Below, in pieces: positions 6,043 to 30,033 of a stretch of 42,777 bases of DNA. The first letter of the stretch is position 1; each line of letters starts with the position of its first letter. The notes under the pieces were generated by a model. The model searched no databases. It was given only the letters and a program-made list of their open reading frames with translations, and was not told where the DNA came from. The position numbers and the translations under genes are program-made. This DNA is from Clostridia bacterium (GTDB lineage Bacteria > Bacillota > Clostridia > Christensenellales > Borkfalkiaceae), in NCBI GenBank assembly GCA_017414525.1, contig JAFQLO010000008.1, forward strand, positions 1 through 42,777. Direction: 5' to 3'.

Positions 6043-6053
6043 GGAGAAAAATT

Positions 6054-8621: not shown

Positions 8622-8647
8622 AACATTGTAAAGCAAGAGGATTTACT

Positions 8648-9523: not shown

Positions 9524-9545
9524 TAAAAGGCTCTGTCCCAAACTC

Positions 9546-9685
9546 TGACTGATTTTTGGCGGAAAAATGCTGCGAATTACTTCGCGTTTTTCTCGACAAC
9601 ATACCGCTACGGGTATGCTCTCGTGAAACAACACTCGTTCTTCTTGTATTTTCCTCGCCAAAATCAAAAAAGTTTTTATCAGTCA
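9546..9685. repeat. About 140-bp element bounded by imperfect inverted repeats (MITE/REP-like or a structured RNA)
   Basis: The left arm is TGACTGAT-TTTTGGCGGAAAAAT (9546-9568). The reverse complement of the right arm (9648-9685) is TGACTGAT-[14 nt]-TTTTGGCGAGGAAAAT. The core contains the hairpin CATACC-gctacg-GGTATG. The element is GC-richer than the surrounding intergenic DNA. Confidence 0.45.
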
Positions 9686-9760
9686 TTTTTTGTGACATAG
9701 CCTAATAAAAAATGCTCGTTTGCTTAGAAAAATATTATAAAAAACACTTATTGGTAAAAG

Positions 9761-9790
9761 AAAAACCACGGAATAATCCGTGGTTTTTTT
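9761..9790. terminator. Bidirectional rho-independent terminator (DMT permease / AraC convergent pair)
   Basis: Sequence aaaaaCCACGG-aataat-CCGTGGttttttt. Confidence 0.75.
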
Positions 9791-9803
9791 GTGCTGTTTA
9801 AGA

Positions 9804-10727
9804 TTAATCTTCAAAGTCTTCAATTTTTCTTGGACCAGACTGTTCGTGTTTAGAATCTTTAAGCGGTTCAAGCTCGTGTTTTTTTGCCTTTGCCAAAGGA
9901 TTGATTGAATCCTTGTTGTTAAGCTTACGGTATTTGATTGGCGTAGTCCCGTATTTCTGCTTAAAAATCTTGTTTAGATAAGAGAGATTGTCAAGCCCTA
10001 CGAGATTGCAAATTTGTTGTAGAGAATAGTTTGTGTTCTCTAGATAGTAAGCCGCATGCGAAAGCCGAACGTCTTTCATGTAGTCGGAAATGGTAACGCC
10101 AACGTATCTCTTAAATAACCTAGAAATGTAAATGGGGGAATAGCCAAACCTAGAAATGAGAGTATTTACTTTTTTTCCAAGGTTTTCAGGGGTGGAAAGG
10201 CTTGCCAAAATCTTCTTTATCACGTCGGGATAAGAAGTGCCCTCGTCACTAGAAGTTAAGGAGTCGTGGAATTTTGACATAAACTTAGCAACTAGCTCTA
10301 ACGCGATGCACTGTTTTTTCTGAACGTTAGCTTGCTTAGAGAAGTCTGTTAAAATTCTCTCGAACTCCGTTACCTCGGTAATGGAAAGACGCACTTTCTT
10401 TTTGTGAAAATTTTCAGTAAGCAATTTTTCGTTCATAAACAGAAGTTGACAAATTCCTTCGAAGAAAGCTCTGTCTATAAGCACGTCGCGCTGAACGGAA
10501 TTTTTAATGGGTTTGAGTTCGTGGCGTGAGCCGATAGACATAAACCTCAAATCCCCCGCAGATAAAACTTCCGTCTGTTTTTGCGAGGTGTGAGAAACCG
10601 CGCCCGAAATCACGTAGAAGAACTCGTAGAAATCGTGCGAGTGGCTGTGCGCCGTGTTATTATACATTATTTGAGTTGAAATATGGGTGTCTTTCAAAAT
10701 GAAATCATGCCCTTGTAAAGTAATCAT
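9804..10727 (-). CDS. AraC/XylS-family transcriptional regulator (cupin sensor domain plus dual HTH)
   Basis: C-terminal AraC HTH (ISRLFKRYVGVTISDYMKDVRLSHAAYYLENTNYSLQQICNLVGLDNLSYLNKIFKQKYGTTP) and an N-terminal cupin-like His-rich segment (HSHSHDFYEFFYV). The start is ambiguous between ATG 10727 and GTG 10733. There is an unusual charged C-terminal tail of about 35 aa. Confidence 0.85.
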   Translation of the reverse strand: MITLQGHDFILKDTHISTQIMYNNTAHSHSHDFYEFFYVISGAVSHTSQKQTEVLSAGDLRFMSIGSRHELKPIKNSVQRDVLIDRAFFEGICQLLFMNEKLLTENFHKKKVRLSITEVTEFERILTDFSKQANVQKKQCIALELVAKFMSKFHDSLTSSDEGTSYPDVIKKILASLSTPENLGKKVNTLISRFGYSPIYISRLFKRYVGVTISDYMKDVRLSHAAYYLENTNYSLQQICNLVGLDNLSYLNKIFKQKYGTTPIKYRKLNNKDSINPLAKAKKHELEPLKDSKHEQSGPRKIEDFED

Positions 10728-10814
10728 CAGCACTATGATACCAGTTTGTGGAAAAAATTCAAGATGAAAATCGAAAGTGGTTTAAATAGCACAAAAATAA
10801 GTTAAAATAGACAA

Positions 10815-10985: not shown

Positions 10986-11163
10986 TATAAAGACCTCAGA
11001 CAAATGATTAAATCGCGAAATCTTCAGCGCGTTTAATATCGAGGTGCTATTAAAGCAGTTGTTTCAAAAGAGACTAAGATACGCCTACTTGTTATTTTTG
11101 ACCAAACTGCTCAAAATAAAACCTCAAAATAATAAAAAAATATTTTTAAGGAGTAACAAGAAA

Positions 11164-12972
11164 ATGAAGAAAAGACTTATTGCTATTGTTATGATGGTAG
11201 TGATGACAGTTGCATCAGCGTTTGCCTTTACTGGTTGTAAAGCCGAAGACAAGACTGATAGCAGCAACACCGTTTTGAACGTGCTTACTTTTAAAGCAGG
11301 TTACGGAACGACTTACTTAGACGCTATTAAACAAGCTTTCGAAGAAACGTTTAAGGCAGAAGGATATAAGATTAATATCTTGACGCCTAAGACCGACCTT
11401 CACGGTTCAATCGTTATTCAGGAAATCTATTCCGGAAGCACCGTTGACGTTTATATCCCTGGTAATATGAATGCCGAAGCAGCGGTTGCAGGTCAGTATA
11501 GCGATAAAGGCGATATTATTAGAGACGTAACCAATTCTGTTTTTAATAAGCCTGCAATTAAACTTGACGGAACGGAAGAGAGCCAAACTATCAAAGAAAA
11601 ACTTTCTTTCTTCTCTGAAGTTTCTGATAAGGTTATAAGTTATGACGGCAAATATTATGGAATTCCTATGACTATCGACGGTGCTGGTCTTGCTATTAAC
11701 CTCAACGTTTTAGAGGATGCAGGATATACTGAAGATGAAATCCCCGTAACTACTAACGAACTTTACGCTATCGCTGACAATATGATGGCAAACATCTCTC
11801 TCGGCGAAGCACCCTTTATCTTCTCTGCACAAGGTAACGGTTACTGCGCAGGCGTTGAACACACTTGGCTTGCTCAGTACGAAGGAATGGGCGGATATAA
11901 CGAGATTTTAGGTTTTGAAGACGCTGACGGCAATCGTTTGGATTGCGTTGTTCCTAACTGCGACGGCTCTAACTGTAACGGTCACGCTTATGACGTGTTT
12001 GAGAAAAACGGTCTTTTAGAAGTTATGGCTGCTTGCTTTGAAATGTACGATCCCTCAAAGCAGACTGTTGGTGGACCTCAAAAAGACTTTAAGGGTGTTC
12101 AGGCTGACTTCGTTCTCGGCAAAGCAGCATTCTACGGCGTATCTGCTTGGATGTACAACGAAGAATATCAAACCTATAACGAAGAAATTAAGGACGTAAC
12201 TTGGGTGCGTATCCCCGTTATCTCTGCATTAGGACCTAAGCTTGACCTCTGTAAGGCAGGTCACGTTGAAAAAACCGGCGAATGTTTCGCTACTTGCGAC
12301 GCTTGTGACGCACTTCTTTCTAAAATAGTTAAATTGACCGACGCTGGAAAGACTGCTGAAGAAATTCAAACGGAAGTTCCCGCAGCTAATATGGACGATA
12401 TCGAAAGAATTATGGAAAGCAGATACCTTGTTAAAGGTTCTGCTGGCGGAATGAGTGCTTGGATTAACGCAACCGTATCTGAAGAAAAGCAAGTTCTCGG
12501 TGAAAAGTTCTTGAGATTTATTGCAAGTGACGAAGTTGCATCTCTTATCTCTAAGCATACCAACACCGTTAACCCCTGCAACAGAAACGCTATCAGCGAC
12601 TCTAACCAGAAATGGTTGCAGAATTCATTCTCAATTTTTAACGACGAAAAAACTATTTTCTTTGAGTCTGGTGTAAGAGGATACAGACAGAAGATGGGTG
12701 TCGTTAACCTCGTTCCCCTTTACGGTAACGTTATGAGTTACGATTTCTATAACAAGCAAATTACTGCTTACGATAGAGGACAGGGCTACAAGAAGGTTGC
12801 TGACAGATCACTCTATACTGAGGCAGCAAAACTTGCTATGTACGGCGGAAAACTTACCCTTCCCGTTAGAGATAACGGCAAACTCGTAGAAGTAGACTTC
12901 GATATGGGTGCTTATAATCACGCTAAAAAGAACATTGAAACTGGCGGTTGGAAGATTCCCGAAAAAAAATAA
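11164..12972 (+). CDS. Large ABC-transporter extracellular solute-binding lipoprotein (CUT1 / LplA-like)
   Basis: The start was set to ATG 11164, after AAGGAG. Signal peptide with lipobox AFTG-C. At 602 aa the size and layout fit the oversized family-1 sugar-binding proteins that pair with LplB/LplC-type permeases. It carries two Cys-rich inserts. Confidence 0.75.
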   Translation: MKKRLIAIVMMVVMTVASAFAFTGCKAEDKTDSSNTVLNVLTFKAGYGTTYLDAIKQAFEETFKAEGYKINILTPKTDLHGSIVIQEIYSGSTVDVYIPGNMNAEAAVAGQYSDKGDIIRDVTNSVFNKPAIKLDGTEESQTIKEKLSFFSEVSDKVISYDGKYYGIPMTIDGAGLAINLNVLEDAGYTEDEIPVTTNELYAIADNMMANISLGEAPFIFSAQGNGYCAGVEHTWLAQYEGMGGYNEILGFEDADGNRLDCVVPNCDGSNCNGHAYDVFEKNGLLEVMAACFEMYDPSKQTVGGPQKDFKGVQADFVLGKAAFYGVSAWMYNEEYQTYNEEIKDVTWVRIPVISALGPKLDLCKAGHVEKTGECFATCDACDALLSKIVKLTDAGKTAEEIQTEVPAANMDDIERIMESRYLVKGSAGGMSAWINATVSEEKQVLGEKFLRFIASDEVASLISKHTNTVNPCNRNAISDSNQKWLQNSFSIFNDEKTIFFESGVRGYRQKMGVVNLVPLYGNVMSYDFYNKQITAYDRGQGYKKVADRSLYTEAAKLAMYGGKLTLPVRDNGKLVEVDFDMGAYNHAKKNIETGGWKIPEKK

Positions 12973-12990
12973 TTACTAACGAAAACCTTA

Positions 12991-13009
12991 CCGCCCGAAT
13001 TTCGGGCGG
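12991..13009 (+). other. Intercistronic GC-rich stem-loop after the binding-protein gene
   Basis: CCGCCCGAA-t-TTCGGGCGG with no U-tract. Hairpins like this typically raise the abundance of binding-protein mRNA relative to the permease genes. Confidence 0.5.
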
Positions 13010-13036
13010 TTGGGGATAAAAAATAAAGGTGAGAAA

Positions 13037-14056
13037 ATGGCAGATTTATCTAAACTTCAAGAAATTACTAGAAAAAGAAAGTGGTATGAGATAGGACATT
13101 ATTCTGCTGATGAGAAAAGATATTTCCCCGTAGTATATTTGCTCCTAATCATTCCAGTTCTTCATCTTATCGTATTTTATTTTTACGTTAACTTTTCGTC
13201 TTTTGCGCTCGCTTTCACCGATAGGTACGGCGACTTTACTTTGGGAAACTTCGAGGCTTTCTTAACAACCTTTTTCTCGGGTGGAGTTGACTCGCAAGGC
13301 GGTGGTAACCCTTCGTTATCTTTAAGAAACAGTTTGATTATTTACTGGATCGGATTTATTGTAGGTAACTCGGTCGGTTTGATAACCACTTATATGCTCA
13401 CTATGCATATCGCGGGAAGTAAATTCTTCCGTGTTTGCTTGCACGTTCCGGGTCTTATAGGCGGCGTCGTTTCCGTTTCAATTAACCAAGGTCTTTTGGC
13501 ATACGACGGACCTATTACTCAAGTAATATTTGCATTGTTCGGAAAAGATAACTTTAACTTTGCCGTTCAAGACGGAGGTTTGCTAGCGCACGAATCGACG
13601 GCGTTTTTAACACTTCTTATATGGAATCAGTGGGGCGCAATCGGTGGTGGCGGAATGGTTCTAGCCGGTGCGTTTAAGAGAATTCCACAAGAAGTATTTG
13701 AGGCTGCTAGCCTTGACGGCTGTGGATTCCTTCGTGAAACTTTCCAAATTGCAGTTCCCTGTGCTTGGCCTACCATTTCAACGAGTTTGATTTTCGGTTT
13801 CTGCGGAATGTTTACGGCTGACCTTAACTTCTATCTATATTCCGGAGGGCAGAACGCTCACGGAATGACGAGTATGGGTTCGTATCTATATAGGTATCAA
13901 GCACTTATTGCAGGTGCGATAGACGCGGGCGGTAACTACGATTGGTTGTACGGCTACGTTTCTGCGGCTGGTATGATTATAACCGCGATAACCGTTCCCT
14001 GTGCGTTCTTGGGAAGATACGTTCTTTCTAAGTTCATTGAAGACGTAAGCTTTTAA
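13037..14056 (+). CDS. ABC sugar transporter permease (MalF/LplB-like)
   Basis: The start was set to ATG 13037. Six or more hydrophobic helices and an EAA loop (EAASLDGCGFLRETFQIAVPCAWP). Confidence 0.85.
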   Translation: MADLSKLQEITRKRKWYEIGHYSADEKRYFPVVYLLLIIPVLHLIVFYFYVNFSSFALAFTDRYGDFTLGNFEAFLTTFFSGGVDSQGGGNPSLSLRNSLIIYWIGFIVGNSVGLITTYMLTMHIAGSKFFRVCLHVPGLIGGVVSVSINQGLLAYDGPITQVIFALFGKDNFNFAVQDGGLLAHESTAFLTLLIWNQWGAIGGGGMVLAGAFKRIPQEVFEAASLDGCGFLRETFQIAVPCAWPTISTSLIFGFCGMFTADLNFYLYSGGQNAHGMTSMGSYLYRYQALIAGAIDAGGNYDWLYGYVSAAGMIITAITVPCAFLGRYVLSKFIEDVSF

Positions 14057-14068
14057 GGAGGTGCTGAG

Positions 14069-14989
14069 ATGGCAGAAGTTGTTATTAGAAAACATAGTAG
14101 AATCAGATCGGCGCTTGCTAAGTGGAAGGCTAAACCCCTCTACGTTAAGGCTATATTGATCTTCTTCTTTATATTCTTTTGTTGTGAAACGTTCACTAGT
14201 TTATTCCCGTTTGCTTGGGTTATAAACAACTCGGTTAAATCGCCCGACCAGTTCGCTAAATTCGGCGCGTCGGCACTAGTTACCGATATTCATCTTGAAA
14301 ACTTTTTAAGAGTTTTCGATCCCGTTGACGGATTCGTTTCTAACGACGTTAGTTACTTCGGAATGCTCTCTAACTCTATTTGGATAACCTTCGTTTACTT
14401 AATCGTTAACATCGGTTCTAGTAGTTTGCTTGCATTCTGTTTGGCAAAATACCGTTTCCCCGGTCATAACCTCCTTTACGGACTTATGATTTTCGTTCAA
14501 ACCATTCCGATTATCGGTACTGGTGCAGCGGCGTATAAACTACTTACCGCTTTGGGCTTTATTAATAACCCCGCACTTATTTGGATGATTTGGTGTTCTG
14601 GTTTTGACTATTCGGCGTTCATTATGTACGGATATTTTAAGGGTATTTCTACCTCATATATGGAGTCTGCGAGAATCGACGGAGCAAACGAGTTCCAGAT
14701 AATTGGCAAGATAATTCTTCCTCTTGCATTCCCTTGTATGCTTGCTCTTATGATCACTAACTTCGTTGGACAGTGGAATAACTATTCAGTAGTTCAAATT
14801 AATCTCCGCGATTTCCCCAACCTTGCTTACGGTTTGTTCACTTATTCTAAGGACATTCTTCACAGCAATAACGATAAGGGAATGTATTACGCGGCACTTA
14901 TTATCACCGCGCTTCCCGGAATTATTTTGTACTCTTGTTTCCAGAAACTTATCCTTGCCAACCTCACCGTTGGTGGACTTAAAGGCTAA
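14069..14989 (+). CDS. ABC sugar transporter permease (MalG/LplC-like)
   Basis: GGAGG lies 8 nt upstream of the ATG. EAA loop ESARIDGANEFQIIGKIILPLAFP. Polytopic membrane protein. Confidence 0.85.
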   Translation: MAEVVIRKHSRIRSALAKWKAKPLYVKAILIFFFIFFCCETFTSLFPFAWVINNSVKSPDQFAKFGASALVTDIHLENFLRVFDPVDGFVSNDVSYFGMLSNSIWITFVYLIVNIGSSSLLAFCLAKYRFPGHNLLYGLMIFVQTIPIIGTGAAAYKLLTALGFINNPALIWMIWCSGFDYSAFIMYGYFKGISTSYMESARIDGANEFQIIGKIILPLAFPCMLALMITNFVGQWNNYSVVQINLRDFPNLAYGLFTYSKDILHSNNDKGMYYAALIITALPGIILYSCFQKLILANLTVGGLKG

Positions 14990-15000
14990 TAAACAAACCT

Positions 15001-15027
15001 TTCCAAGGCGGAAAACCCGCCTTGGAA
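15001..15027 (+). other. Intercistronic stem-loop between permease and giant lipoprotein gene
   Basis: TTCCAAGGCGG-aaaac-CCGCCTTGGAA: an 11-bp stem with only a weak T-tract. Confidence 0.5.
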
Positions 15028-15052
15028 GAACTCTTTTAACTAGGAGGTTTTT

Positions 15053-18000
15053 ATGAAAAAAACTAGAAAGATTTTAATTTTCGTTCTCTCCGTTATGTTT
15101 GCAATAAGCGCGTTTAGTTTCGTCGCTTGTGCACAGAAAAAAGAGGAAATGAAAATTACTACCGTTCCTCCCATCGTTCAACATTGTGTGGGGGAAAGTA
15201 TTAACCTTTACGACTATATAATCAGAGAGGCTGGTGCTACTTATACCTTCTCCGTTTCTTATAACGGTGGGGAAGCGAAAGCTCTTAATGCTAACGGTTA
15301 TTATCTCGCTGAAACTGGCGATTATACTTTTACCGTTAACGGCTCTTCCGCTACGAAAGAGGGTAGTGCAACGTTCTCACTCTCAGTCGTAGAAGTTGCA
15401 CCTACTATTTGGTATAAGACTGCTGAAATTCCTGCTTACTGGCTTGAATATACCATATTATATAAGTTGTTAGACGAAGCTGGTCCTTACACTATGCCTG
15501 TTGGCGGTGTTACCACCGAGCTTACGCACGTTTTCGTTTATCCCGCAGAGGACGATACCATAGGTTATAAAGTTGACCTTACCGGTACTCAGTCTTACGT
15601 TGAGAAGTTCAATAAAGAAACTCCCGACGATTTAACCAAGATTGAACTTACCGACGATAACATTGACGAACTTGGTTTCTACGTTAACAGAAAGAAACGT
15701 GTTGACGACACTTCTCCTATTAAGGCGGATGACGGAAAATACTACGGCGTTAAAGATATGCAGGGTATTTTTATGTACCTCATAGAAGGTCAATACGAAT
15801 TCCATTACAGATCTTATAACACTGGTGGTGAACAAAAGGCTAAGTTCTACGTTAAGTGTACTGAAAAACTTTTCGAACTCACCGAACTCGAAGGGGCACT
15901 CCAGTTCGATAGAGATACCGAAGTGGCTAGTTGGGCTCCCATTGAGGGCGCAGTTCAATATAAGGTTAAACTCCTTAATAAGAACTTCTTTACTACTGAC
16001 ACTTTCTTCGATTGTTCACAGTTAATCACTAATCCTATTATGGATTATACCATAGTCGTTCTTCCTATCGGTGAAAATCCCGAAAAGGCAAACGATTATC
16101 TCAACAACTGCAAGATGACCTATGAAACTCCTTACATAGGTAGTGAAGGCGCTGTTCAGAACGCTGATAAGTCTATCACCATTAAGGGTAACAACCCCGT
16201 TGGCGGTGACCTTTACGGACATATGGCTGCTGTTGAAAACGAATACTACGCTCTCCGTGGTAACTACGGAATCGGTAACTACATTGACGTTAAGTTTAAG
16301 GGCAACAATATGCCTACTATCGTTCTATTTGCCGACGCTATTAACAAGTCTGTTACTTGGCACGGTGGTAGAGGTATCGTAGTTATGAACGGTCTCGTTT
16401 CTTATACTGAAGGTGGCGATCTCGTTAAAAGTTACTTGGATAGAACGTATGTTTTCGGACCTAACAGAGTAAACACTCACTTTACTCATAAGCCACTTGC
16501 AGCTCTTTCGGGTAATAACACCAACCTTACCCAAAATTATTTAAAGAGCAACTCAAACACCACGTTTACTTATACCGTTGGTACTCGTATTGACTCGAGC
16601 GAGATGATTCTTCTCTCGTCAACGCTTAAAAACGCTGATACTGGCGAGGTTATTTCTACTCAAGAATATCCGCTCCACTATCAATACGATGCGTCTAAGT
16701 CAATCAAAGACATAAGTCCTACCAGATATTTGACTACTGACGACGTTAACCCTGGTAGCTTCATTCTTTTCGGCGCGTATAAAGAGAACGGTGAAGACAC
16801 TACTATCCTTTCAGTAAGCGATCCTTATTACGTTGATCCTCGTTCAACCGTGGAAAACGAAGACGGTTCGTTCACCGTAACTTCTTCTAGAGTAGTAGGT
16901 ACTGATTGGAACGCTCTTAAAACTTCTAACAGTAAGTTTGGTTACGTTCTCCAAGAAGGCAAGTTCGGTGTAAACACTTACGCTGAATACGTTTTCAAGG
17001 GCAACAATATGCCTCAAATTCTTCTCTTCGCTGATAAGATTGACGGCAACTTCACGGGTAATGGTGGCGGTAAGGGTATCCTTATCTCTAACGGTATGGT
17101 AAGTTATACCGTTGATAAGGACGGAAATTACGTTGCTACTAACGACACTGCTAGTCTTAAGATTTACGGACCTAACAGAATCGCTGGTAAGCCCGCATTC
17201 GTTAAAGAGGACAGTGCGTTCTCACAAGATAATTTAAGCAAATCTTCTTCTGCCGAATACAGAATGGTTGTAGGTACGAAGGTTGTTTATGAAGACGTTA
17301 ACACTTACACTCCCGTTAAGAAGTCTTACATCGGTAAAGACGGATTTATGGAAGAAGTAGTTTACGTCGTTCTCGAACTCTATAACAACAAGACTGGACG
17401 TTTAATCGAAAAGATTGAAACTCCCGTTCAGTCAAATGAAAACAATTACGATAAACTCGCTAGAAATAAGTTCGTTACCACTCAGGATATAACTGCTGGT
17501 AGCATCGTTGCATTCGCTGGTATTAAGGGCGTTGACGCAACTGGTAAGGCTCTTACCACTACTTTCTTCTGCTCAAAAGCACCTGAAACGATTGCGCCTT
17601 CTACCTCTGGTCACGTTCACGACTTTACTAACTACAACAACGACGGAACTTATCACTGGTTCGAATGTACTTGTGGTGCTAAATGCACGAAGGGTACTTG
17701 CGTAGGCGGAACTGCAACTTGTAGCGAACTCGCAGTTTGTGACGTTTGTGGCAAGGGTCACGGCGAATTGCTCCCACACGTAGGTGGAACTGCAACTTGT
17801 ACTGAAAAGGCAGTTTGTACCGCTTGTGGTCAGTCTTACGGATACTTCGGTCACGTATTTAACGCTGAAACGGCTAACGTTCAGTCTAACGACGATTACC
17901 ACTGGTTCACTTGTGATAAGTGTGGCGTTGTAACCGAGCAGATGGTTCACGTTGGTGGCGAAGCAACTTACGAAGACAGGGCAGAGTGTGAAATTTGTGG

Positions 18001-21000
18001 CAAACCTCACGGCGATTACAAAGCACCTGAAAGTTCTGATGAAGTTACTCTCGTTAACGTAACTAATACTCAAGGCAACCTCTTTAAGGATAAGAGAACG
18101 CTTACTGCTCAAAGCGGTAGTATTACCTTTGATAACGCGCTTGACGATCCTATCTATACTGGTCAGACCGCTGCTATCGTTCTTAACGAACAGTTCACCG
18201 ATCAGTTCATAAAAGTAAGCTTTACTGCACTTGATACGGTTAACGAAACTGCAACTAACTTCCAAGATGCAATCGGTTTCTCAATCGGCTTTAGAAGACA
18301 GACCAGCGACGTGTCAGTTGCTATTAACGATTGGACGATTTCTCCTTGGGCTAACACTAACTACTTCTATATTACCAACACCGCGTCTTACCTCAAAGCG
18401 TTCTCTAACGCAACGGGCGCAAAACACGAAATAGAGAATAAATCGTTCAGATCAATCGTTATCGGCGAAAGATATTCGTTGGTATTCGGTATCACCGAAG
18501 AACAGAACGGTGACGACGTGTTCCACTTGATGTGGCTCGACGAAAACGATAACGTTCTCGCTTATCGTGTCGCAAGACAAGATTACTTTGATTCTAAGTG
18601 GGCGGGCGTTAAGACGTTAGAAGACAGCGGTTACTTCACGATTAACGCGTTTGCCGCTGAAAGAATTACTCTCGATTACGAGATTATCTCTGAAGAAGAT
18701 TCTCACACCGTTCTCGGAATTCACACCTTTGACATTTACGAGAAGATTGACGAAGTTTACCACTCAATCGAATGTAAGTGTGGCGAGGCTGGAAACAACC
18801 AAGTTCATAGTGGTGGAGAAGCAACCGAAACTTCAAGAGCTGTTTGTGATTTCTGTGGCGAAGAATACGGCACGGTTAAACAGCCTATCGCTGAAGACGT
18901 TATCGTAACTGGAACTATTAACGAAACGGCTAACGAATTTGACGGAAAAACTGAACTTACTACTGAAAGCGGTAGTTTGACTTTCAGTTCTAAAGTTGAT
19001 GGACTTAACTGGCAAAAGACTTCCAACATAAACCTCTGCAAGGAATACTCTTCTGAGTTCATTAAGATCGGCTTTACTGCTCTTTGCGACGGTCAAGGTG
19101 AACCGCTTGAAGGTGGCAAGATTAACTACAAGGTAGCAGACGCTATGGGCTTCGTAGTTGGCTTTAAGAAGGCTAAAGTTGAAGAGTCTGGAAACCTCGT
19201 TCTTTCTGATTGGCTGCTCAAGTTTAATAACGACGCAAACATCGGTTATCTCTATAACAAACCTGCTAACTCTTTTGCTCTCGCAGCGTTTGCTACGAAG
19301 TTGAATACTAGTGGAAGCTTCATCGATATGGTTAAAGGAGAACAGTACTACTTAACCGTCGGCGTTGTTGGTCAGGGTGATAACAGCACTATTTACTTGA
19401 TGCTTTTAGATAGCGACAATCAGATTATGGCTGGTTATAGCGCAACTATGGCACAGTTCAAGGCGCTTAGACCTGACGCAGAGATGCCTGATAAAGGTTA
19501 CTTTGCAATCGGTAGCTACGCAACTGAAGAAACGACCTTAACTTACGAAATCCTTTCTCCTGCAGAAAGATGTGAACTCTTAGGAATTCACGAATTTAAC
19601 ACTTACGAATACCTCGATAAGCGCGTTCACAAAGTTTCTTGTAGCGTTTGCGGTACGGAAACGGATAACGCAGCACATGTAGGCGGCGAAGCAACCTTAA
19701 CCGAAAAGGCTGTTTGCGACTTGTGTGGCGAAGAATATGGTAACTTCAAACAACCTATTGCTGAAGACGTTGCAATCTTCAATATGGTTGACGAATACGT
19801 TGAGGAATTCGACGGGGGAAGAGAACTTACCACCGAAAGCGGTAAAGTTACCTTCACCGGCACTACTGGCACTAACAGAGACGCTGCAACCATCGTTCTT
19901 AAAAAGCAATATGCAAATCAATTCATAAAAGTTGGATTTACTGCACTTTGCGATGGTTCAAGTACGGCTTGCCCTGCAATCTCTTGGGGACTTGACGTAG
20001 GCGTTAGAGGCGTTGAAACTACTAGCGCACTTACCAACTGGACCATGGTTGGGTGGACCAACACTAACTATTTCTACTTCTGTAAAGACGGTGCAAACCG
20101 CAGCCACTTCGGTGGAATCGGTACTAGAACCGGTAGCACAGACTTTAGAAGTGTTAAGGAAGGACAACAGTACTATATCGTTGCGGGTATGACTGGTACT
20201 GGTGAAAACGCAGTATTCCACTGGATGTGGCTTGACGCAAACGATAACGTACTTAGAACTAGCACGATTACCGCTGCTGAAATGGCAGCAAAACACCCCG
20301 CAGGTGTGATTGAAGATACTGGATACTTCACTATTCACAGTTCTGCTACCGTTGAAAGAACTATTACTTACGAAGTTCTCTCTGACGTGGAAAGATGCGA
20401 ACTCTTCGGCGTTCACGTCTTTGGTGAATACACTTTGGTTGACAAGGAAAATCACCAAGCAACCTGTAAAGACTGCGGTGAAAAATTTGGCGATCTTATC
20501 GCTCACGAAGGTGGCACTGCTGATTGTGATACCAAAGCAATCTGTGAAGTTTGTGGCGAAGAATACGGTGAATTCGAACATAAGTTAGATGGCGAAGATT
20601 CAATTCAGAGCAATGCTGATTACCACTGGTTCACTTGTGGGCTCTGCGGAGAACCGTCAGAACAAATCAAGCACTTTGGTGGCGAGGCAACTTACGAAGA
20701 ACAAGCAAAATGTGAAGTTTGCGGTCAGCCTCACGGCGAATATAAACTCTTCGAGGGTAGTGAAGACGTTGAGCTTCTAAATGTAACTAATCTTAAACTC
20801 GACCTCTTTGACGGTAAGAGAACTCCGAACTTAGAAAGCGGTAAGATTACCGTTAACGCAACCACTCCTAGTGAACTTAACTGGCAGAACACCGCAGTAG
20901 TTGGATTAAAGAAACAGTATACCGATGAATTCATTAAGATCGGATTTACCGCACTTTCTGGCGATGGCTCGAAAGTTAACCTCTACGACGCGATGGGCTT

Positions 21001-22300
21001 TGCAGTAGGCTTTAGAAGAACTGCTCTTGCGGCTAACCCCGTTCTTTCAGACTGGATGTTTAAGCCAAATAACGACACTAACTACGGCTACTTCTATAAC
21101 AGAGCGGCTAATGCATTTGCTTACGGACACGGTGGCGTTGCGATGGGTGCTATGGCTAACCTTAAACTCGTTAAGGGTCAGCAGTACTATTTCGTACTCG
21201 GCGTAACTGGAACTGCTCCTGAAGCAGGCGTAGAAGATACTAGAGTAATGTACGCAATGTGGCTTGACGCTAACAACGCTTTAATTGGCGGTTTCAACGT
21301 TCCGATGAAGAAGTTCTTAACCGTTAGACCTAGTGGTTCAATGAGTGATAGTGGTTATTACACCATTCACGCTTACATTGACGGAGTAACCCTTTCTTAT
21401 GAAGTACTTTCCGCAAAAGAAAGATGTGAACTTTTAGGAATTCACGACTATGCAACTTACGCTTTCGTTGACGACACCTATCACGCACTTTCTTGTGACT
21501 GTGGCGCAAACAAGGGCAACGAAACGCATCAAGGCGGAGAAGCAACCTTTACCGAAAAGGCAGTTTGCGATTTCTGCAAACAGCCTTACGGAACGGTAAA
21601 ACAAGCGATTGCGGACGACGTTACGCTCATCAATATGACCAACGTTACCGCTATCCCCGCAGCAGGTAAAGAAGTTATCGATACCCAAGAAGGTACGATT
21701 AAGTTCACTTCAACGCTTGCAAGTAGCGGTTGGGGTAGCGAAAATGCAACCGTAGTATTACAGAAACAATATACTAGCGAATTCATCAAAGTGGGCTTTA
21801 CCGCCCGCTCTGGTGATGGCACCGCTCTTAACGGCTATTCAGCAATGGGCTTTGGCGTTGGTTTTAGAAAGGCAGCAGTTAACTCAATAGCAACCAGTAC
21901 TGACTGGTGTGTAGTTGGTTCTGACTCAGGTACTTACTGCGTATTCTACGGCAATAAAGCGGCTAACGCATTCCACGATGGACATGGACCTACACGTCAC
22001 GGCACAAAAACCAACTTGAAGTTTGTTGAAGGTCAGAAGTATTACTTCGTAGTAGGCGTTGCAGGAACTGTTGATGGAACTACTGATAACAGAACTATGT
22101 ACGCCATTTGGCTTGATGCAAACGATAACTTGATTGCAGGATTCTCCGTACCAATGACTAAGTTCGTTTCTGTAAGAGCAGATGCAACGATGCCAGAGAG
22201 CGGATACTTCTCAATTAACGCTTTTGCAGTTAATGAAGAAATGACACTTTCCTATGAAATAATCGATGCGGCAACAGCACTCGGTTACGTAGGCAAATAA
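15053..22300 (+). CDS. Giant (2415 aa) modular surface lipoprotein of unknown family
   Basis: AGGAGG lies 6 nt upstream of the ATG. Signal peptide with lipobox SFVA-C. Single uninterrupted ORF. Internal modules: an Ig/FN3-like N-terminal region, 2 A modules, a Cys/His knuckle block and 5 B modules. No LPXTG, SLH, dockerin or catalytic motif was recognised. Confidence 0.9.
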   Translation: MKKTRKILIFVLSVMFAISAFSFVACAQKKEEMKITTVPPIVQHCVGESINLYDYIIREAGATYTFSVSYNGGEAKALNANGYYLAETGDYTFTVNGSSATKEGSATFSLSVVEVAPTIWYKTAEIPAYWLEYTILYKLLDEAGPYTMPVGGVTTELTHVFVYPAEDDTIGYKVDLTGTQSYVEKFNKETPDDLTKIELTDDNIDELGFYVNRKKRVDDTSPIKADDGKYYGVKDMQGIFMYLIEGQYEFHYRSYNTGGEQKAKFYVKCTEKLFELTELEGALQFDRDTEVASWAPIEGAVQYKVKLLNKNFFTTDTFFDCSQLITNPIMDYTIVVLPIGENPEKANDYLNNCKMTYETPYIGSEGAVQNADKSITIKGNNPVGGDLYGHMAAVENEYYALRGNYGIGNYIDVKFKGNNMPTIVLFADAINKSVTWHGGRGIVVMNGLVSYTEGGDLVKSYLDRTYVFGPNRVNTHFTHKPLAALSGNNTNLTQNYLKSNSNTTFTYTVGTRIDSSEMILLSSTLKNADTGEVISTQEYPLHYQYDASKSIKDISPTRYLTTDDVNPGSFILFGAYKENGEDTTILSVSDPYYVDPRSTVENEDGSFTVTSSRVVGTDWNALKTSNSKFGYVLQEGKFGVNTYAEYVFKGNNMPQILLFADKIDGNFTGNGGGKGILISNGMVSYTVDKDGNYVATNDTASLKIYGPNRIAGKPAFVKEDSAFSQDNLSKSSSAEYRMVVGTKVVYEDVNTYTPVKKSYIGKDGFMEEVVYVVLELYNNKTGRLIEKIETPVQSNENNYDKLARNKFVTTQDITAGSIVAFAGIKGVDATGKALTTTFFCSKAPETIAPSTSGHVHDFTNYNNDGTYHWFECTCGAKCTKGTCVGGTATCSELAVCDVCGKGHGELLPHVGGTATCTEKAVCTACGQSYGYFGHVFNAETANVQSNDDYHWFTCDKCGVVTEQMVHVGGEATYEDRAECEICGKPHGDYKAPESSDEVTLVNVTNTQGNLFKDKRTLTAQSGSITFDNALDDPIYTGQTAAIVLNEQFTDQFIKVSFTALDTVNETATNFQDAIGFSIGFRRQTSDVSVAINDWTISPWANTNYFYITNTASYLKAFSNATGAKHEIENKSFRSIVIGERYSLVFGITEEQNGDDVFHLMWLDENDNVLAYRVARQDYFDSKWAGVKTLEDSGYFTINAFAAERITLDYEIISEEDSHTVLGIHTFDIYEKIDEVYHSIECKCGEAGNNQVHSGGEATETSRAVCDFCGEEYGTVKQPIAEDVIVTGTINETANEFDGKTELTTESGSLTFSSKVDGLNWQKTSNINLCKEYSSEFIKIGFTALCDGQGEPLEGGKINYKVADAMGFVVGFKKAKVEESGNLVLSDWLLKFNNDANIGYLYNKPANSFALAAFATKLNTSGSFIDMVKGEQYYLTVGVVGQGDNSTIYLMLLDSDNQIMAGYSATMAQFKALRPDAEMPDKGYFAIGSYATEETTLTYEILSPAERCELLGIHEFNTYEYLDKRVHKVSCSVCGTETDNAAHVGGEATLTEKAVCDLCGEEYGNFKQPIAEDVAIFNMVDEYVEEFDGGRELTTESGKVTFTGTTGTNRDAATIVLKKQYANQFIKVGFTALCDGSSTACPAISWGLDVGVRGVETTSALTNWTMVGWTNTNYFYFCKDGANRSHFGGIGTRTGSTDFRSVKEGQQYYIVAGMTGTGENAVFHWMWLDANDNVLRTSTITAAEMAAKHPAGVIEDTGYFTIHSSATVERTITYEVLSDVERCELFGVHVFGEYTLVDKENHQATCKDCGEKFGDLIAHEGGTADCDTKAICEVCGEEYGEFEHKLDGEDSIQSNADYHWFTCGLCGEPSEQIKHFGGEATYEEQAKCEVCGQPHGEYKLFEGSEDVELLNVTNLKLDLFDGKRTPNLESGKITVNATTPSELNWQNTAVVGLKKQYTDEFIKIGFTALSGDGSKVNLYDAMGFAVGFRRTALAANPVLSDWMFKPNNDTNYGYFYNRAANAFAYGHGGVAMGAMANLKLVKGQQYYFVLGVTGTAPEAGVEDTRVMYAMWLDANNALIGGFNVPMKKFLTVRPSGSMSDSGYYTIHAYIDGVTLSYEVLSAKERCELLGIHDYATYAFVDDTYHALSCDCGANKGNETHQGGEATFTEKAVCDFCKQPYGTVKQAIADDVTLINMTNVTAIPAAGKEVIDTQEGTIKFTSTLASSGWGSENATVVLQKQYTSEFIKVGFTARSGDGTALNGYSAMGFGVGFRKAAVNSIATSTDWCVVGSDSGTYCVFYGNKAANAFHDGHGPTRHGTKTNLKFVEGQKYYFVVGVAGTVDGTTDNRTMYAIWLDANDNLIAGFSVPMTKFVSVRADATMPESGYFSINAFAVNEEMTLSYEIIDAATALGYVGK
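16140..17590 (+). repeat. Two tandem A modules (about 233 aa each) inside the giant ORF
   Basis: The motif KGNNMP(T/Q)I(V/L)LFAD recurs at nt 16301 and 17000, a 699-nt period. Both copies share GG(R/K)GI...NG(L/M)VSYT, (V/I)(F/Y)GPNR and the tail GS(F/I)(I/V)(L/A)F(G/A). A third copy is in the 1401-aa protein at nt 25264 (TGNNMPNVILYAD). Confidence 0.8.
17609..18030 (+). repeat. Block of His/Cys knuckle repeats (zinc-ribbon-like or disulfide knots)
   Basis: The block contains HWFECTCG...GGTATCSELAVCDVCGKGHG, HVGGTATCTEKAVCTACGQSYG and HWFTCDKCG...HVGGEATYEDRAECEICGKPHG. The same unit recurs as a linker after each of B modules 1-4 and once in the 1401-aa protein. Confidence 0.8.
18040..22297 (+). 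repeat. Five tandem B modules with knuckle linkers (period about 852-864 nt; 1007 nt where the linker is doubled)
   Basis: The motif (Q/E)FIK(V/I)(S/G)FTA(L/R) recurs at nt 18206, 19058, 19922, 20929 and 21782. Each module also carries G(E/Q)(R/Q/K)Y(Y/S)..(V/F/A)G(I/V/M)(T/V/A), (M/I)(W/L)LD(E/S/A)(N/D)(D/N)N, (S/K/T)GY(F/Y)(T/A/S)I and a (L/I)(T/S/D)YE(I/V)(I/L) tail. Linkers begin ERCEL(L/F)G(I/V)H. Confidence 0.85.
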
Positions 22301-22319: not shown

Positions 22320-23918
22320 ATGAAAAAACGTTTTACAAAAATATTAACATTAGCGATGTCTTCAATAATGGCGGTTGGCACACTCTTCGGATGTGCCACC
22401 GAGCAAACGGGAAGAATAGTTAGTGCAACTCTTCCCGAGGGATATTTCTTCCCAGAATATACCATTGAGCAGTCGGGCAAAACTTACGAAACGTTTGCTT
22501 ACGGCGCGTCAAGAAACCCGTATTTAACGTTTGACGGTGAACAAAGAGAGTTCGTTGATACTACTTCTGTTGAGTATATGCAAACTTATAAGGACGCAGG
22601 ATTCACCGTTTACTTCTCGACATTCTCGGAAAGTGCTGATATAATGAGCGTTCTTGATAACGCAGAAAAGGTTGGCTTGAAAGTTCTAGTAACTGACTTC
22701 TGGATTCTTGATGCGGTAGGCACTGACGGAAAACTCGTTGACGAGAACAACGACGGAACTAAGAGCAGAGATTATAGAACGAAAGAAGAATTGCAAGAAG
22801 CCGTTAGAGTGCAGATTGAAGAGTGGTGTTCACACCCTGCATTCTTTGGACTTAACATGCGTGACGAGCCGATAATTGACTTCCATGAAGACTACGGCGA
22901 CTTGTATAAAGCAATTCGTGCGATTGAACCCACGCTCAAAAAAGCAGACGGAACGTTCTATAAACCTGGTGAACTTTATCTCCACGTTAATATGTTGCCT
23001 CTCGGCATCAACGTTGGAACGAGTTACTATAAGGAATACGAAACACTTGGCGAAGCGTATGATAAATACGTAAGAAATATGTTCGAAGTTTCTGGCGCTG
23101 ACAGACTTTCAGTGGATATTTACGAATTCAGAAGAGACGGCGTGTTCCCTGGCTTCTTCCCGACCATGCAGATGTTCGCAAACGCTTGTAGGGACTATAA
23201 AGCAGGATTCACTTACGTTCAGCAATCGTTCAACACTTTCTCTGGAACAACCGAATCTTACGGCAGAGTAACGAGAGCGGAAATGATGAGTGAAACTTAC
23301 ACTGCAATCGGCTTAGGTGCAACCCACCTTTCGTACTATACTTACACACCGTATGCAGAACAATCAGTAGCAGGTACGCACACCATTCACCACTTCTTGG
23401 ATTTTGAGGGCAAACCCACCAACGTTTATTACTACGGTCAGGCTGCAATGAAAGAAGCAAGATTCTTGGCTGATTACGTGTTTAACTTTGATTATCAAGG
23501 TTGTAACTTCGTAACCAACCCCGATCCCGACTCAATGACGTTTGGTATCGGTGCATATCTCACTAGCCGTGGTGATAGCGTAACTGGTACTAGTGCTCAG
23601 TTTGACAGAACTTACGAGTTCGAAAAGATTAAGAACGAGGACATCGTTATCGATAACGATATACTTTTGGTCAGCGAACTCAAAGATTCAAAGAACGATT
23701 TGTATATGTACATGTTCCAGAACGTATTGAACCCCTCTGACGAGAAGATCGGTAGGGTAGACGTAAACGTAAGCGTTGACTTCGGAACGGAATACGACTG
23801 GGTAGCAGAAATCGGTGGCGGAATGGTTAACTACGTTAAACTTGATAAAGGCGTATACACCGCATCACTCGGTGCAGGCTATGCAAACTTCGTAGTACCC
23901 CTAGCAAAAGCAAACTAA
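22320..23918 (+). CDS. Surface lipoprotein, uncharacterised enzyme-like family (paralogue of 28628..30013 and 30034..31410)
   Basis: Signal peptide with lipobox LFG-C. It shares ordered motifs with the two downstream paralogues: AGF(T/N)V, FFGLNMRDEP vs FYG(I/V)QLYDEP, LHVNMLPLGIN vs LQCNLLPYCGID, VDIYEFRRD vs (V/F)DEYFFR(R/K)D, QQSF vs (L/I)QSF, and LSYYTYT vs (I/A)(G/A)FFTYMT. The alternating beta-alpha style pattern suggests a TIM-barrel hydrolase, but this is unproven. Confidence 0.6.
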   Translation: MKKRFTKILTLAMSSIMAVGTLFGCATEQTGRIVSATLPEGYFFPEYTIEQSGKTYETFAYGASRNPYLTFDGEQREFVDTTSVEYMQTYKDAGFTVYFSTFSESADIMSVLDNAEKVGLKVLVTDFWILDAVGTDGKLVDENNDGTKSRDYRTKEELQEAVRVQIEEWCSHPAFFGLNMRDEPIIDFHEDYGDLYKAIRAIEPTLKKADGTFYKPGELYLHVNMLPLGINVGTSYYKEYETLGEAYDKYVRNMFEVSGADRLSVDIYEFRRDGVFPGFFPTMQMFANACRDYKAGFTYVQQSFNTFSGTTESYGRVTRAEMMSETYTAIGLGATHLSYYTYTPYAEQSVAGTHTIHHFLDFEGKPTNVYYYGQAAMKEARFLADYVFNFDYQGCNFVTNPDPDSMTFGIGAYLTSRGDSVTGTSAQFDRTYEFEKIKNEDIVIDNDILLVSELKDSKNDLYMYMFQNVLNPSDEKIGRVDVNVSVDFGTEYDWVAEIGGGMVNYVKLDKGVYTASLGAGYANFVVPLAKAN

Positions 23919-23928: not shown

Positions 23929-23972
23929 CCTTGAAGTTATCGGGTGACCGATAACTTCGGGGCAAACTTTTA
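23929..23972 (+). terminator. Strong stem-loop / probable partial terminator
   Basis: CCTTGAAGTTATCGG-gtga-CCGATAACTTCGGGG: a 15-bp stem including 2 G-U pairs, followed by caaacTTTT. Confidence 0.55.
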
Positions 23973-24083: not shown

Positions 24084-24215
24084 ATGAGAAAAATTTACGA
24101 ACAGGCAGAGATGGAGATTCTTTATTTTGAATCTTCAGACGTAATGGACGTATCTGCGCCGACTGGTTCTAACTTTGACGGCACGATAGAGGACTGTTAC
24201 GGAGACCAGTTGTAA
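24084..24215 (+). CDS. Small acidic protein (43 aa), unknown function
   Basis: AAAGGAG lies 7 nt upstream of ATG 24084. Product: MRKIYEQAEMEILYFESSDVMDVSAPTGSNFDGTIEDCYGDQL. Its TAA stop overlaps the GGAGG of the next gene. The longer 24006 start has no ribosome-binding site. Confidence 0.5.
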   Translation: MRKIYEQAEMEILYFESSDVMDVSAPTGSNFDGTIEDCYGDQL

Positions 24216-24231
24216 GGAGGTGGCAGAGAGT

Positions 24232-27200
24232 ATGAATAAGACTATTAAAACAAAATTGATTTCACTTTTTGCTGTTCTTCTTTCAATATGTATGCTTTTC
24301 AGTGTGGCTAGCATGGTAACGACAACGGCAAAAGCAGAAGGCACGACCACCGCAGCAACTTTGGTTGAAGGTGCAGCTGTTAGAGTTAATAGTGCTGAAT
24401 CTTCAGGTTTGAAGTTTAAGGCTTCAATCGATAAGGCTCAGTACAACGCTCTTTATAACCAAGCTGGTGGCAAACTTAAAGCAGGTATGATCATCGTTCC
24501 GACTGATTATATCACCGCTGCAAACGGTTACACGTTTAACGCATTTGCTGCTGCTGGCAAAACGGTAGCATCAAACACCATCGCAGAGTTTAAGAATGCA
24601 AGCGAAAGCACTTACGAGTTCACGATGAGTATTATTAATCTCAAACTCGCTAACTACGACAGAGATTTTGAAGCAATCGTTTACTTGGAGAGTGAAGTTG
24701 CTCTTGACGGTTTCGTTGCTTACGGCGACAAGTATTATGCTTACGCTGAAAGAAATGAATCTTACGCAAGAAACATTTATGAAGTTGCTAAAGGCGTTTA
24801 TAACGACAGAGCAGACGCTCAAGACGACGTTAAGTACATCTATCCTGTTGACGGCAAGTACGCAACTTTGGATACTGACGGCTTAGCAATCGCTAAAACC
24901 TTTATCGACGGCGTAACTGAAATTGTTCTTGATAACGGTAAACCCGCTGCATATTCAAGTGAATACTACGCAGCAAAGGACAGCGTTTTAACTAACGACA
25001 CTGAGGCTTATCTCTTGGGCGAACACAAAAACGTTGTTTATAAGGGCGAAAGCATTTCTTCTTATCCCTTCACCGCTGACGGTATAGCTATTAAACAGAT
25101 GTATACCGCTAGAGCAACCTATGCTAACGGTGAGTATACTACCGCTGGTTATGCAATTGGTGCTCTTCTTTGGTCAGCGGGTAATGCTGGTAATGGAACT
25201 TATGGCTACGTAGCATTTGACGGAGAATATGGTCCTAGCACTTACGTTGAATTTACTTTCACTGGTAATAATATGCCTAACGTTATTCTCTATGCAGATG
25301 ACGTAACTGATGGTAATATGACTCACAATTCAGGTGGTAAGGGTATTGCCATGATCAACGGTATATCTTATGACGGTACAGCTTCTACTGGTAGAACTAC
25401 TGACTTAGAAGTTTGGGCACCATATAGATGGAATGGACACTACGTAGGATACAATTCATATAGATATTACGGTGATTCAAAAGTTCCTATGATGAAATAT
25501 TTTATCAACAATCCTACGACTGAATTCAGATACGTTGTTGGTACTTATATCGTTAAGGAAGACGTTCATAACGCTTCTGGCGTTGTTTATGGCGCGGAAG
25601 AGGAGAAGGACGGCGTATTAGAAGAAGTTATCTATCTTGATATGGCTATTTATAATAATAGCACTGGAGCGTCTTTATATACTCTTAAAACTCCCCTTTG
25701 GGCTAAAAACACCACCTCTTCTACTGCAACAACAGATCGTGTAACTACAGAAGATTTGTCAAGTGGCGCAATTATGGCGTTCTCAGCTTTGAAGGGTGCT
25801 GATGCGACTACTGGTGACGTTCTTAACACCACCTTTAAGGTAACCAAAGCTCCTTATCACGTTCATAATTTCAATTCTGAAATTAAGAGCGATGCAACTC
25901 ACCACTGGTATGAATGTGCTTGTGGCGAAGTTGGCGAAAAGGCTGAACACTTGGGCGGAACTGCAACTCACACCGAAAAGGCAAAATGTGAAGTTTGTGG
26001 AACTGCTTACGGCGACCTCAAACCCGCTTGGGAAGTAGACGACGTAGCACTCGTTCAAATGACTAACCAGTCTGCTGCACAGGTTATCACTGCTGATAAA
26101 GGTACTATTACCTTTACTGGTTCACAAGAAACTCCTTCACAGACTAACGCATCTTCTATCGTTCTTAAGAAACAGTATACTACTGAATTCGTTAGGGTAG
26201 GATTCACTGCACTTGCAGATTATGTAAGAGAAGGCACTGTAACCAACTTGAACTCCGTTCTCGGACTCAACGTTGAATATAGAACTTCAAGCGAAACTAG
26301 TAAGAGTGGTGTTGACAGTTGGGGCTTTGATATTATGAATACCACCAACTACTTCCGTTTGTATCCTGTTCATAGCGGACACTACGGTGGATATGCTTCA
26401 GATAGAACAGTTGCTAAGGCATTCGTTGCTGGCGAACAGTATTACTTAATTGCTGGTATCGATAGCAATAACACCTTATATTTCTATATTCTTGATGAAG
26501 ACAACACCGTTATGGCTAAGTCTACTATGGACGAAGCAGCGTTAATTGCAGCTGGAACTCATGCAACTAATAAAACTCTTGATTATTCAATGCCTGAATC
26601 AGGTTACTGGACTATCAACAGCTGGGCAACCTCAGAGAGAACCCTTTCTTGGGAAACCATTTCTGAAACTCAAGCAATGTACTACATTAACGGCGGAAAG
26701 GGTGTTGAAGGTCTTGCTGTTAGCGGCAACACCGCAAGCTGGACTGCTTATAACGGCGCAACCTCTTATAAGGTAAAAGTTGATAACGGCGAATGGACTG
26801 ACGTTGGTAACGTAACCTCTTACGCTATTGCTAACCTCGCCGCATTTGACACTTATAGCGTAACTGTTAAGGCTGTATGCTCAGGCTTTGAAACTAAAGA
26901 AACCGCAACTCAATTTACTTACGTTCCTAGTGGAATTACCCTTGCTAACGTTGATAGTATTAAGGCTGATGGAAACGCAACTGCAACTAGTGGAAAGGTA
27001 ACTGTAACGGCTGATACTGCATCTGCAATCGGTTTTGCTGCAGACGCTACCGACTTTATTAAAGTTAAATTTGCCGCAACTGGCGCTGCTGTTGAAGCAA
27101 TGTCAATAAACTTCCGTCAAGCAAGCGTTGCTGCAAACTGGCAGAGTGGTTGGGGTATAGTACCTAACGGAACGCACGGAATGATGCTTAATTACGGCGG

Positions 27201-28425: not shown

Positions 28426-28467
28426 TCTTTAGATTTCTAATCTAACAGATTAAAACTTAAAACATTA

Positions 28468-28496
28468 AAGGCAATTCTTCGGAATTGCCTTTTTGT
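28468..28496 (+). terminator. Rho-independent terminator
   Basis: AAGGCAATTC-ttcg-GAATTGCCTTtttg. Confidence 0.8.
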
Positions 28497-28594: not shown

Positions 28595-28627
28595 ATTGAT
28601 AATGATATTATTGTGAGGACTTTGGTT

Positions 28628-30013: not shown

Positions 30014-30033
30014 ACTGGATTATCGAGGCTATT

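Follow-up and report, generated by a model that had tools for sequence, protein, structure and literature searches.

A large Clostridia lipoprotein built from two uncatalogued repeat modules, a candidate glycan-capture protein of a carbohydrate-utilization locus

A 42,777-nucleotide (nt) stretch of DNA from a Clostridia bacterium (GenBank assembly GCA_017414525.1, contig JAFQLO010000008.1; hereafter, the window) encodes a 2415-residue protein with two copies of one module, A, and five copies of another, B. This protein probably serves a Gram-positive polysaccharide utilization locus (gpPUL) as a lipid-anchored, multivalent glycan-capture protein. We propose that C26 would be lipidated after export, which would tether the protein to the membrane on its outer face, and that three Ig/fn3-like domains would form its stalk. 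The two A and five B modules, as lectin-like β-sandwiches, would present a long array of binding sites, in which four-cysteine, probably metal-binding, spacer units would keep the B modules apart. At the cell surface, the array would retain a polysaccharide that is complex and probably contains rhamnose; there, a surface lipoprotein of a family here termed GHx and a secreted paralog carrying A and B modules would process it. The fragments would be imported via the adjacent ATP-binding cassette (ABC) importer, and two cytoplasmic GHx paralogs would finish the breakdown. Carbohydrate binding is an inference, as are the fold of A, the assignment of GHx as an enzyme, the binding of metal by the spacers, and the identity of the substrate. 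Surface binding proteins are already known from sugar-uptake loci; what is new here is the orphan module families, and we regard the finding as moderately surprising.

The gene is an open reading frame (ORF) free of internal stops, and the features discussed here and below are collected in Table 1. The N-terminal sequence of the product, MKKTRKILIFVLSVMFAISAFSFVAC, matches a regular expression for the Gram-positive lipobox pattern. The lipobox cysteine is kept in the orthologs P0002–P0006 and in the distant equivalents at loci L005 and L006 (proteins are denoted by P and loci by L). By its signal peptide and lipobox cysteine, the protein is predicted to be a bacterial lipoprotein, and the cell-surface location proposed in a first-pass annotation of the window fits the conserved lipobox. 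The same annotation had described a lipoprotein with two A and five B modules, a description borne out by the uninterrupted frame, the conservation of the lipobox, and the placement of the copies with hidden Markov models (HMMs). A BLAST search of the whole protein against itself returned the identity match alone; the repeats were detected by searching pieces of 150 residues against each other, and HMMs were then built from the copies. Approximately 1600 of the 2415 residues belong to A and B modules, and the remainder comprises three N-terminal domains (bigN1–bigN3, residues 27–352) and approximately eight Cys-rich spacers. The N-terminal domains and the spacers had been missed in the first-pass annotation, as had a 1401-residue paralog and the operon context. 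None of bigN1, bigN2, and bigN3 has a Pfam match. Home-made HMMs showed that bigN1 recurs in the fusion proteins P0020 and P0022, where it follows the GHx domain, and that bigN1 and bigN3 recur in the L005 and L006 lipoproteins. Identification of the protein as a scaffoldin of a cellulosome or amylosome, or as an LPXTG adhesin, was rejected: Pfam detected no cohesin, dockerin, or SLH domain in it, and it has no LPXTG-like motif.

The A module spans approximately 240 residues and the B module approximately 220. The two A copies are 33% identical (E = 6e-19 in the piece-wise BLAST search), with KGNNMP at residues 416 and 649 and GPNR at residues 469 and 706. Pairs of B copies are 31–47% identical in protein sequence and 59–66% identical in DNA sequence, with piece-wise E-values down to 1e-48. 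The B motifs quoted in the first-pass annotation were found with small deviations, and the first copy, B1, reads QFTDQFIKVSFTAL. The divergence of the B copies in DNA, also noted there, was thus confirmed. A near-identical stretch that had been reported between B copies is real and is correctly placed at 21419; its other copy starts at 19565, not 19566, and this 29-mer codes for ERCELLGIH, with which the Cys-rich spacer behind a B module begins, and lies outside the B core. Likewise, a count of eight B and three A copies is right only when the neighboring 1401-residue protein (one A and three B) is included, and is wrong for the 2415-residue protein alone.

For most of the B copies, the nearest relative is found outside their own protein, in another protein or lineage. 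B4 is 61% identical to a copy in P0004/P0006, as against at most 47% to its own neighbors, and the second B of the 1401-residue protein is most similar to the B found in the GHx fusions. It follows that the duplications are old and that the modules have been shuffled. Compared with the 88%-identical ortholog at L001, the ratio of nonsynonymous to synonymous substitution rates (dN/dS) is 0.03–0.16 in every segment, spacers included, which indicates that all of the modules are under purifying selection. These values, the 31–47% identity, and the closest relatives elsewhere support the earlier suggestion of old, selectively maintained duplications. Because the sequence is a metagenome-type contig with internal repeats, we considered whether the array could be an assembly artifact, produced by collapse or expansion. 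The chance of this is negligible: intragenic DNA repeats are at most 152 nt long and 60–88% identical, the longest being 72% identical; two independent assemblies show the same order of two A and five B modules at 88% protein identity; and purifying selection acts on the frame, which is uninterrupted. The first-pass annotation had also argued against an artifact.

The number of copies varies among this and related proteins, from two to five for B and from one to four for A. Proteins of this clade (P0001–P0003) carry two A and five B modules, P0004–P0006 carry three of each, with fn3 replacing a Cys-rich unit in some, and P0011–P0019 carry two to four B modules and no A. Tandem, diverged copies are typical of binding modules that build avidity. 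An alignment of 47 B copies, a comparison of the kind that the first-pass annotation had suggested, revealed 12 positions kept in at least 80% of the copies (three Gly, two Phe, two Thr, Lys, Val, Arg, Tyr, and Glu). By position, these residues fall in the predicted strands and not in the loops, which would leave the loops free to vary. Across 20 A copies, those of distant loci included, a polar signature is conserved (F.GNNMP, GPNR, VGT, N652, R709, D812, and K825). No relationship between the A and B profiles was detectable (hhalign probability 0.2).

The first-pass annotation recognized no family for either module, and the same result was obtained with the family libraries that we searched, namely Pfam, NCBIfam, and PDB sequences. 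Neither the whole protein nor any excised segment had a significant match in Pfam-A or NCBIfam. When 13 B and nine A modules were submitted singly at E ≤ 5, no significant or recurrent family appeared. The B profile found no match at E ≤ 10 among 177,635 PDB sequences, 4jqt, 3hbk, and 4b1m included, and the A profile found among the same sequences only a summed artifact against designed kelch-like repeat proteins. In these Pfam and PDB searches, B showed no profile match to the DUF1080/3-keto-disaccharide hydrolase family (PF06439), to CBM66, a family of carbohydrate-binding modules (CBMs), or to legume and L-type lectins.

Relatives of the protein are few. In a word-indexed search of 5.8 billion proteins, no more than five full-length relatives came up. 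Run with the A alignment, the same kind of search recovered just two fragments, with known members left undetected; further A copies were found by inspection of distant loci. An exhaustive HMMER search with the B profile covered 1.84 billion representatives, each standing for one cluster at 50% identity, drawn from approximately 15 billion proteins. It gave 26 matches at E ≤ 1e-3, of which approximately 20 are genuine. P0024, P0029, and P0030 were rejected as B proteins, their matches being partial, approximately 100 residues long, and located in fn3-type repeat proteins. Among 185,579 genomes, B occurs in one species representative, the Clostridia metagenome-assembled genome (MAG) HGM11410. 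The rarity of B suggests a narrow, specialized niche function.

The predicted structure of B places it in a known fold class. An AlphaFold model of B4, made with an alignment of 13 copies, has a mean predicted local distance difference test score (pLDDT) of 87.9 and a predicted template modeling score (pTM) of 0.88. A Foldseek search of the PDB with this model gave 43 matches at E ≤ 1e-3, nearly all of the concanavalin A-like (ConA-like) lectin/glucanase fold; the best matches have a probability of approximately 1.0, TM-scores of 0.35–0.52, and sequence identities of 9–15%. The matches include 4jqt and 3hbk (DUF1080), 3ipv and 1gz9 (legume lectins), and 4b1m (CBM66), and further 2duq (VIP36), 3wht (ERGIC-53), 7sie (the lectin domain of the staphylococcal adhesin Aap), and SPRY domains. 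The model supports assignment of B to the ConA-like fold, a two-sheet antiparallel β-sandwich, as a fold class and not as membership of a family. B thus resembles DUF1080/CBM66 domains, legume and L-type lectins, and Aap in its predicted two-sheet β-sandwich and differs from them in having no Pfam or PDB sequence-profile match at E ≤ 5–10. The results for A are less clear. The best Foldseek matches of its model, all weak (best E = 1.1e-3, TM-scores of 0.3–0.4), are the galectin-like N-terminal domain of a coronavirus spike, VIP36, and galectins, and a galectin-like fold for A is suggestive only. The first-pass annotation had suggested jelly-roll or lectin-like domains and the modeling of single modules as a check; the check yielded fold-level matches for B with no named sequence family, so that the suggestion stands for B and is tentative for A.

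An alternative is that the protein is itself an enzyme, in which A or some of the B copies form a catalytic β-jelly-roll of a new glycoside hydrolase (GH) or polysaccharide lyase (PL) family and the other modules target the substrate. The polar signature of A, unusually strong over 20 copies, speaks for this, as do the place of A as the ancient conserved core of the B-less lipoproteins of L005 and L006 and the presence of DUF1080 "putative glycosyl hydrolases" and a PL7 lyase among the top Foldseek matches of B. We nevertheless consider it unlikely that the protein acts in this way. Two to four tandem A modules per protein would be an unusual number for catalytic domains, the A and B alignments show no evident conserved pair of acidic residues, the PDB profile searches found no sequence match to solved GH or PL structures, and B is appended to another putative enzyme, GHx. 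A catalytic role is less likely for B than for A.

The spacers consist of approximately eight copies of a Cys-rich unit of 40 residues, located from A2 to B1 and between successive B modules. The consensus of the unit is HW..C..CG.......H.GGTAT..EKAVC.VCG..YG, with two Cys pairs, C.(1–3)C and CxxCG, and the four-Cys pattern is kept in 11 aligned units. Pfam found no match to the unit, PDB sequences gave only non-significant rubredoxin or zinc-finger knuckles (best E = 0.08), and a literature search for it returned nothing relevant. The two Cys pairs recall the CxxC knuckles of zinc ribbons and rubredoxins, with a weak similarity to the rubredoxin knuckle (K.VC.VCG.EY); the differences are that the spacer unit is extracellular, has its own conserved His and GG(T/E)AT elements, and matches no family significantly. 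From this pattern, we presume that the units are probably metal-binding. An HMM scan also detected at least five copies of the unit in an unrelated SLH-anchored surface protein of 2862 residues (P0007). The four-Cys unit therefore seems to be an extracellular spacer in general use among Clostridia that has not been catalogued.

Table 1. Positions of the features of the 2415-residue protein gene and of its surroundings in the window
Feature	Position	Strand	Evidence or remark
GH78 alpha-L-rhamnosidase and GH106-like rhamnosidase	3799..8585	+	Pfam, NCBIfam
AraC-family regulator, divergent, operon head	9804..10733	-	Pfam HTH_18, HTH_AraC, AraC_binding; synteny in L001–L003
Carbohydrate ABC importer: lipoprotein substrate-binding protein and two permeases	11044..14989	+	SBP_bac_8, TIGR03850, BPD_transp_1
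Intercistronic hairpin, 12 bp, between last permease gene and the 2415-residue protein gene	15000..15028	+	
Lipoprotein signal peptide with lipobox (..SFVAC, Cys26)	15053..15130	+	Regular-expression match and Cys conservation
bigN1 (residues 27–130), bigN2 (131–270), bigN3 (271–352, fn3-like)	15131..16108	+	Home-made HMMs
A module, copy 1 (residues 356–592)	16118..16828	+	hmmsearch with A profile, i-Evalue 1.9e-101; KGNNMP, GPNR
A module, copy 2 (residues 593–844)	16829..17584	+	A-profile HMM
Cys-rich spacer cluster, two full units and one half (residues 867–990)	17651..18022	+	Unit consensus
B module, copy 1 (residues 990–1214)	18020..18694	+	hmmsearch, i-Evalue 1e-82
Cys-rich spacer unit (residues 1236–1276)	18758..18880	+	Unit consensus
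B module, copy 2 (residues 1275–1503)	18875..19561	+	hmmsearch
Cys-rich spacer unit (residues 1525–1566)	19625..19750	+	Unit consensus
B module, copy 3 (residues 1565–1778)	19745..20386	+	hmmsearch
Two Cys-rich spacer units (residues 1800–1898)	20450..20746	+	Unit consensus
B module, copy 4 (residues 1898–2121), used for AlphaFold	20744..21415	+	
Cys-rich spacer unit (residues 2143–2183)	21479..21601	+	Unit consensus
B module, copy 5 (residues 2182–2406)	21596..22270	+	hmmsearch
Complete ORF, 2415 residues	15053..22300	+	No internal stops
532-residue GHx-family lipoprotein, putative extracellular enzyme	22320..23918	+	
Conserved 43-residue small ORF, MRKIYEQAEMEILYFESSDVMDVSAPTGSNFDGTIEDCYGDQL	24084..24215	+	Also called in L001, L002, L005
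1401-residue secreted paralog	24220..28425	+	hmmsearch with A and B profiles
Two tandem cytoplasmic GHx paralogs (466 and 458 residues), signal peptide absent	28613..31410	+	

The genes surrounding the 2415-residue protein form a tight co-directional cluster. Behind the divergent AraC gene, the order is the substrate-binding protein, two permeases, the 2415-residue protein, the 532-residue GHx lipoprotein, the 43-residue ORF, the 1401-residue paralog, and the 466- and 458-residue GHx proteins, and this order is kept in L001–L003. The 1401-residue paralog consists of an N-terminal domain, A (residues 291–546), a Cys-rich unit, B (602–816), fn3, B (899–1108), fn3, and B (1189–1393). Its N-terminal domain of approximately 250 residues also heads the B-only proteins P0008–P0010, as found with an HMM, and the N-terminal motif G.S.R...YGIKF was recognized, by eye only, in P0011–P0014, P0018, P0022, and P0031.

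The GHx proteins constitute a small family of approximately 460–530 residues, for which only 13 relatives were found. No Pfam or NCBIfam family matches GHx, and PDB sequences yielded only a designed protein at E = 0.065. The motif D182-E183-P184 is invariant. The cytoplasmic pair (genes at 28613–30013 and 30034–31410, followed by a phosphoglucomutase gene) share 78% identity with each other and 25% with the 532-residue lipoprotein. In P0020 and P0022, bigN1, fn3, and a single B are appended C-terminally to the GHx domain; as judged from the domain order, this is the classic arrangement of a putative enzyme and its accessory binding module.

Several smaller features of the cluster were also observed. 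The ORF of the substrate-binding protein, listed as 11044–12972, opens at GTG, and a far better start lies 40 codons on, at Met41 (nt 11164). From Met41, the protein reads MKKRLIAIVMMVVMTVASAFAFTGC, with a predicted lipoprotein signal and lipobox, and its orthologs are 587–600 residues long. The hairpin ahead of the 2415-residue protein gene is strong but has a weak T-tail, and it may be an attenuator or an mRNA-stabilizing element. A hairpin occurs at the same position in L001 (approximately 9950–9980), with a compensatory change in the stem, and in L002 (approximately 5145–5175), with a different sequence; similar hairpins stand behind the 532-residue protein gene (23933–23958) and the 1401-residue protein gene (28467–28492). 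The small ORF, 41–43 residues long, is found elsewhere at 19018–19149 in L001, 13378–13506 in L002, and 5171–5296 in L005. A tail like that of the small ORF, GDNNDG..D.Y, terminates the GHx-B fusions P0020 and P0022, and the motif could be a Ca-loop-like or a recognition motif.

At more distant loci, the cluster differs in composition. The equivalent lipoproteins of L005 and L006/L007 are built of bigN1, fn3, and three to four A modules, without B and without Cys-rich units, and the second protein of these loci consists of the N-terminal domain and two A modules. Since B and the Cys-rich units are missing there, A, GHx, and the transporter constitute the ancient core, and B and the Cys-rich spacers a lineage-specific extension. 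Both L005 and L006 carry a rhamnosidase six-hairpin gene (Bac_rhamnosid6H) and a beta-lactamase-family gene; L006 further has GH28 and melibiase genes, and L005 a GH1 gene. In L004, which belongs to the MAG HGM11410, a protein of 826 residues (8093–10573) consists of the N-terminal domain, B, fn3, and B, without A and without Cys-rich units. Its gene adjoins genes for phosphoglucomutase, DUF1538, aldehyde dehydrogenase, and PHP proteins, as in the right part of the window, with a P-type ATPase gene on the opposite side. Because these neighbors match, the surface-protein locus is taken to vary at a chromosomal position that is itself conserved.

The gene context also bears on the possibility that the protein works as an adhesin, fixing the cell to host mucus, plant particles, or other microbes, with only a loose link to nutrient import. 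Its large size, surface anchoring, and repeated lectin-like modules would suit such a function, as would the resemblance in structure between B and the Aap lectin domain. The gene, however, lies inside an operon conserved in at least five loci, 64 nt behind the permease genes and 20 nt ahead of the next gene, and searches of the protein revealed no anchor typical of adhesins, such as LPXTG or SLH. We therefore regard adhesion as the main function as improbable; adhesion to food particles would in any case be compatible with glycan capture.

Glycan capture for a sugar-uptake system remains the explanation that we favor, and a number of points weigh against it. The Foldseek matches of B are distant (E = 4e-5 to 1e-3, identities of approximately 10–12%), and enzymes, too, adopt the ConA-like fold (GH16, PL7, and, as the top matches, the DUF1080 3-keto-glycoside hydrolases), so that the predicted fold is no proof of a non-catalytic role. 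The AlphaFold model of A, made for copy 2, is of low confidence (pLDDT 66.9, pTM 0.70), and the polar signature of A (F.GNNMP, GPNR, VGT, D812, and K825) could equally well mark a site of catalysis or of binding. Only the invariant DEP motif and the genomic context suggest that GHx is an enzyme. The rhamnosidase genes are cut off from the operon by the divergent AraC gene, and a gene for the ABC ATPase is absent from the locus. As to the substrate, the recurrent rhamnosidase and GH28 neighbors hint at a rhamnose-containing, possibly pectic, polysaccharide.

More tentatively, the locus may encode a self-contained carbohydrate-utilization system made up mostly of undescribed families (A and B as two new CBM families, GHx as a new enzyme family acting on either side of the membrane, the four-cysteine, metal-binding spacer, and the conserved 43-residue peptide) and aimed at a rhamnose-containing polysaccharide that no known enzyme family opens. 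In the boldest version of this idea, A would found a new catalytic family instead of binding. Gut and rumen Clostridia degrade much dietary fiber, and most of their surface machinery is unannotated. A, B, and GHx are bounded, expressible modules that could found new CBM and enzyme families, and the locus could shed light on the capture of a complex, probably rhamnose-containing, glycan by a Gram-positive cell.

The locus has the components of the minimal gpPUL as defined for Roseburia/Eubacterium rectale (PMC5320581), namely an AraC regulator, a substrate-binding protein with two permeases, and the GH78 and GH106-like genes. It differs in that neither the A/B proteins nor the three GHx proteins of the core operon fall into any Pfam family linked to CAZy, and its recognizable GHs are exo-acting rhamnosidases located outside the core operon. 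The surface glycan-binding proteins of the SusE/SusF type in Bacteroides are surface lipoproteins with an N-terminal Ig-like spacer and tandem β-sandwich binding modules. Sas20 and Sas6 of the Ruminococcus bromii amylosome are reported to be non-catalytic starch-binding surface proteins (PMC9112005; bioRxiv 10.1101/2022.11.20.514607). The 2415-residue protein shares with SusE/SusF and Sas20/Sas6 surface display, the lack of a recognizable catalytic domain, tandem β-sandwich modules (predicted here), and enzyme and transporter partners. It is far larger, with seven modules, is built from other, uncatalogued module families, and has Cys-rich spacers; its anchoring would be that of a Gram-positive-type lipoprotein, as against attachment to the outer membrane or through dockerin. 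The context of the 2415-residue protein points away from starch as its ligand. The 2415-residue protein would be functionally analogous to SusE/SusF and Sas20/Sas6.

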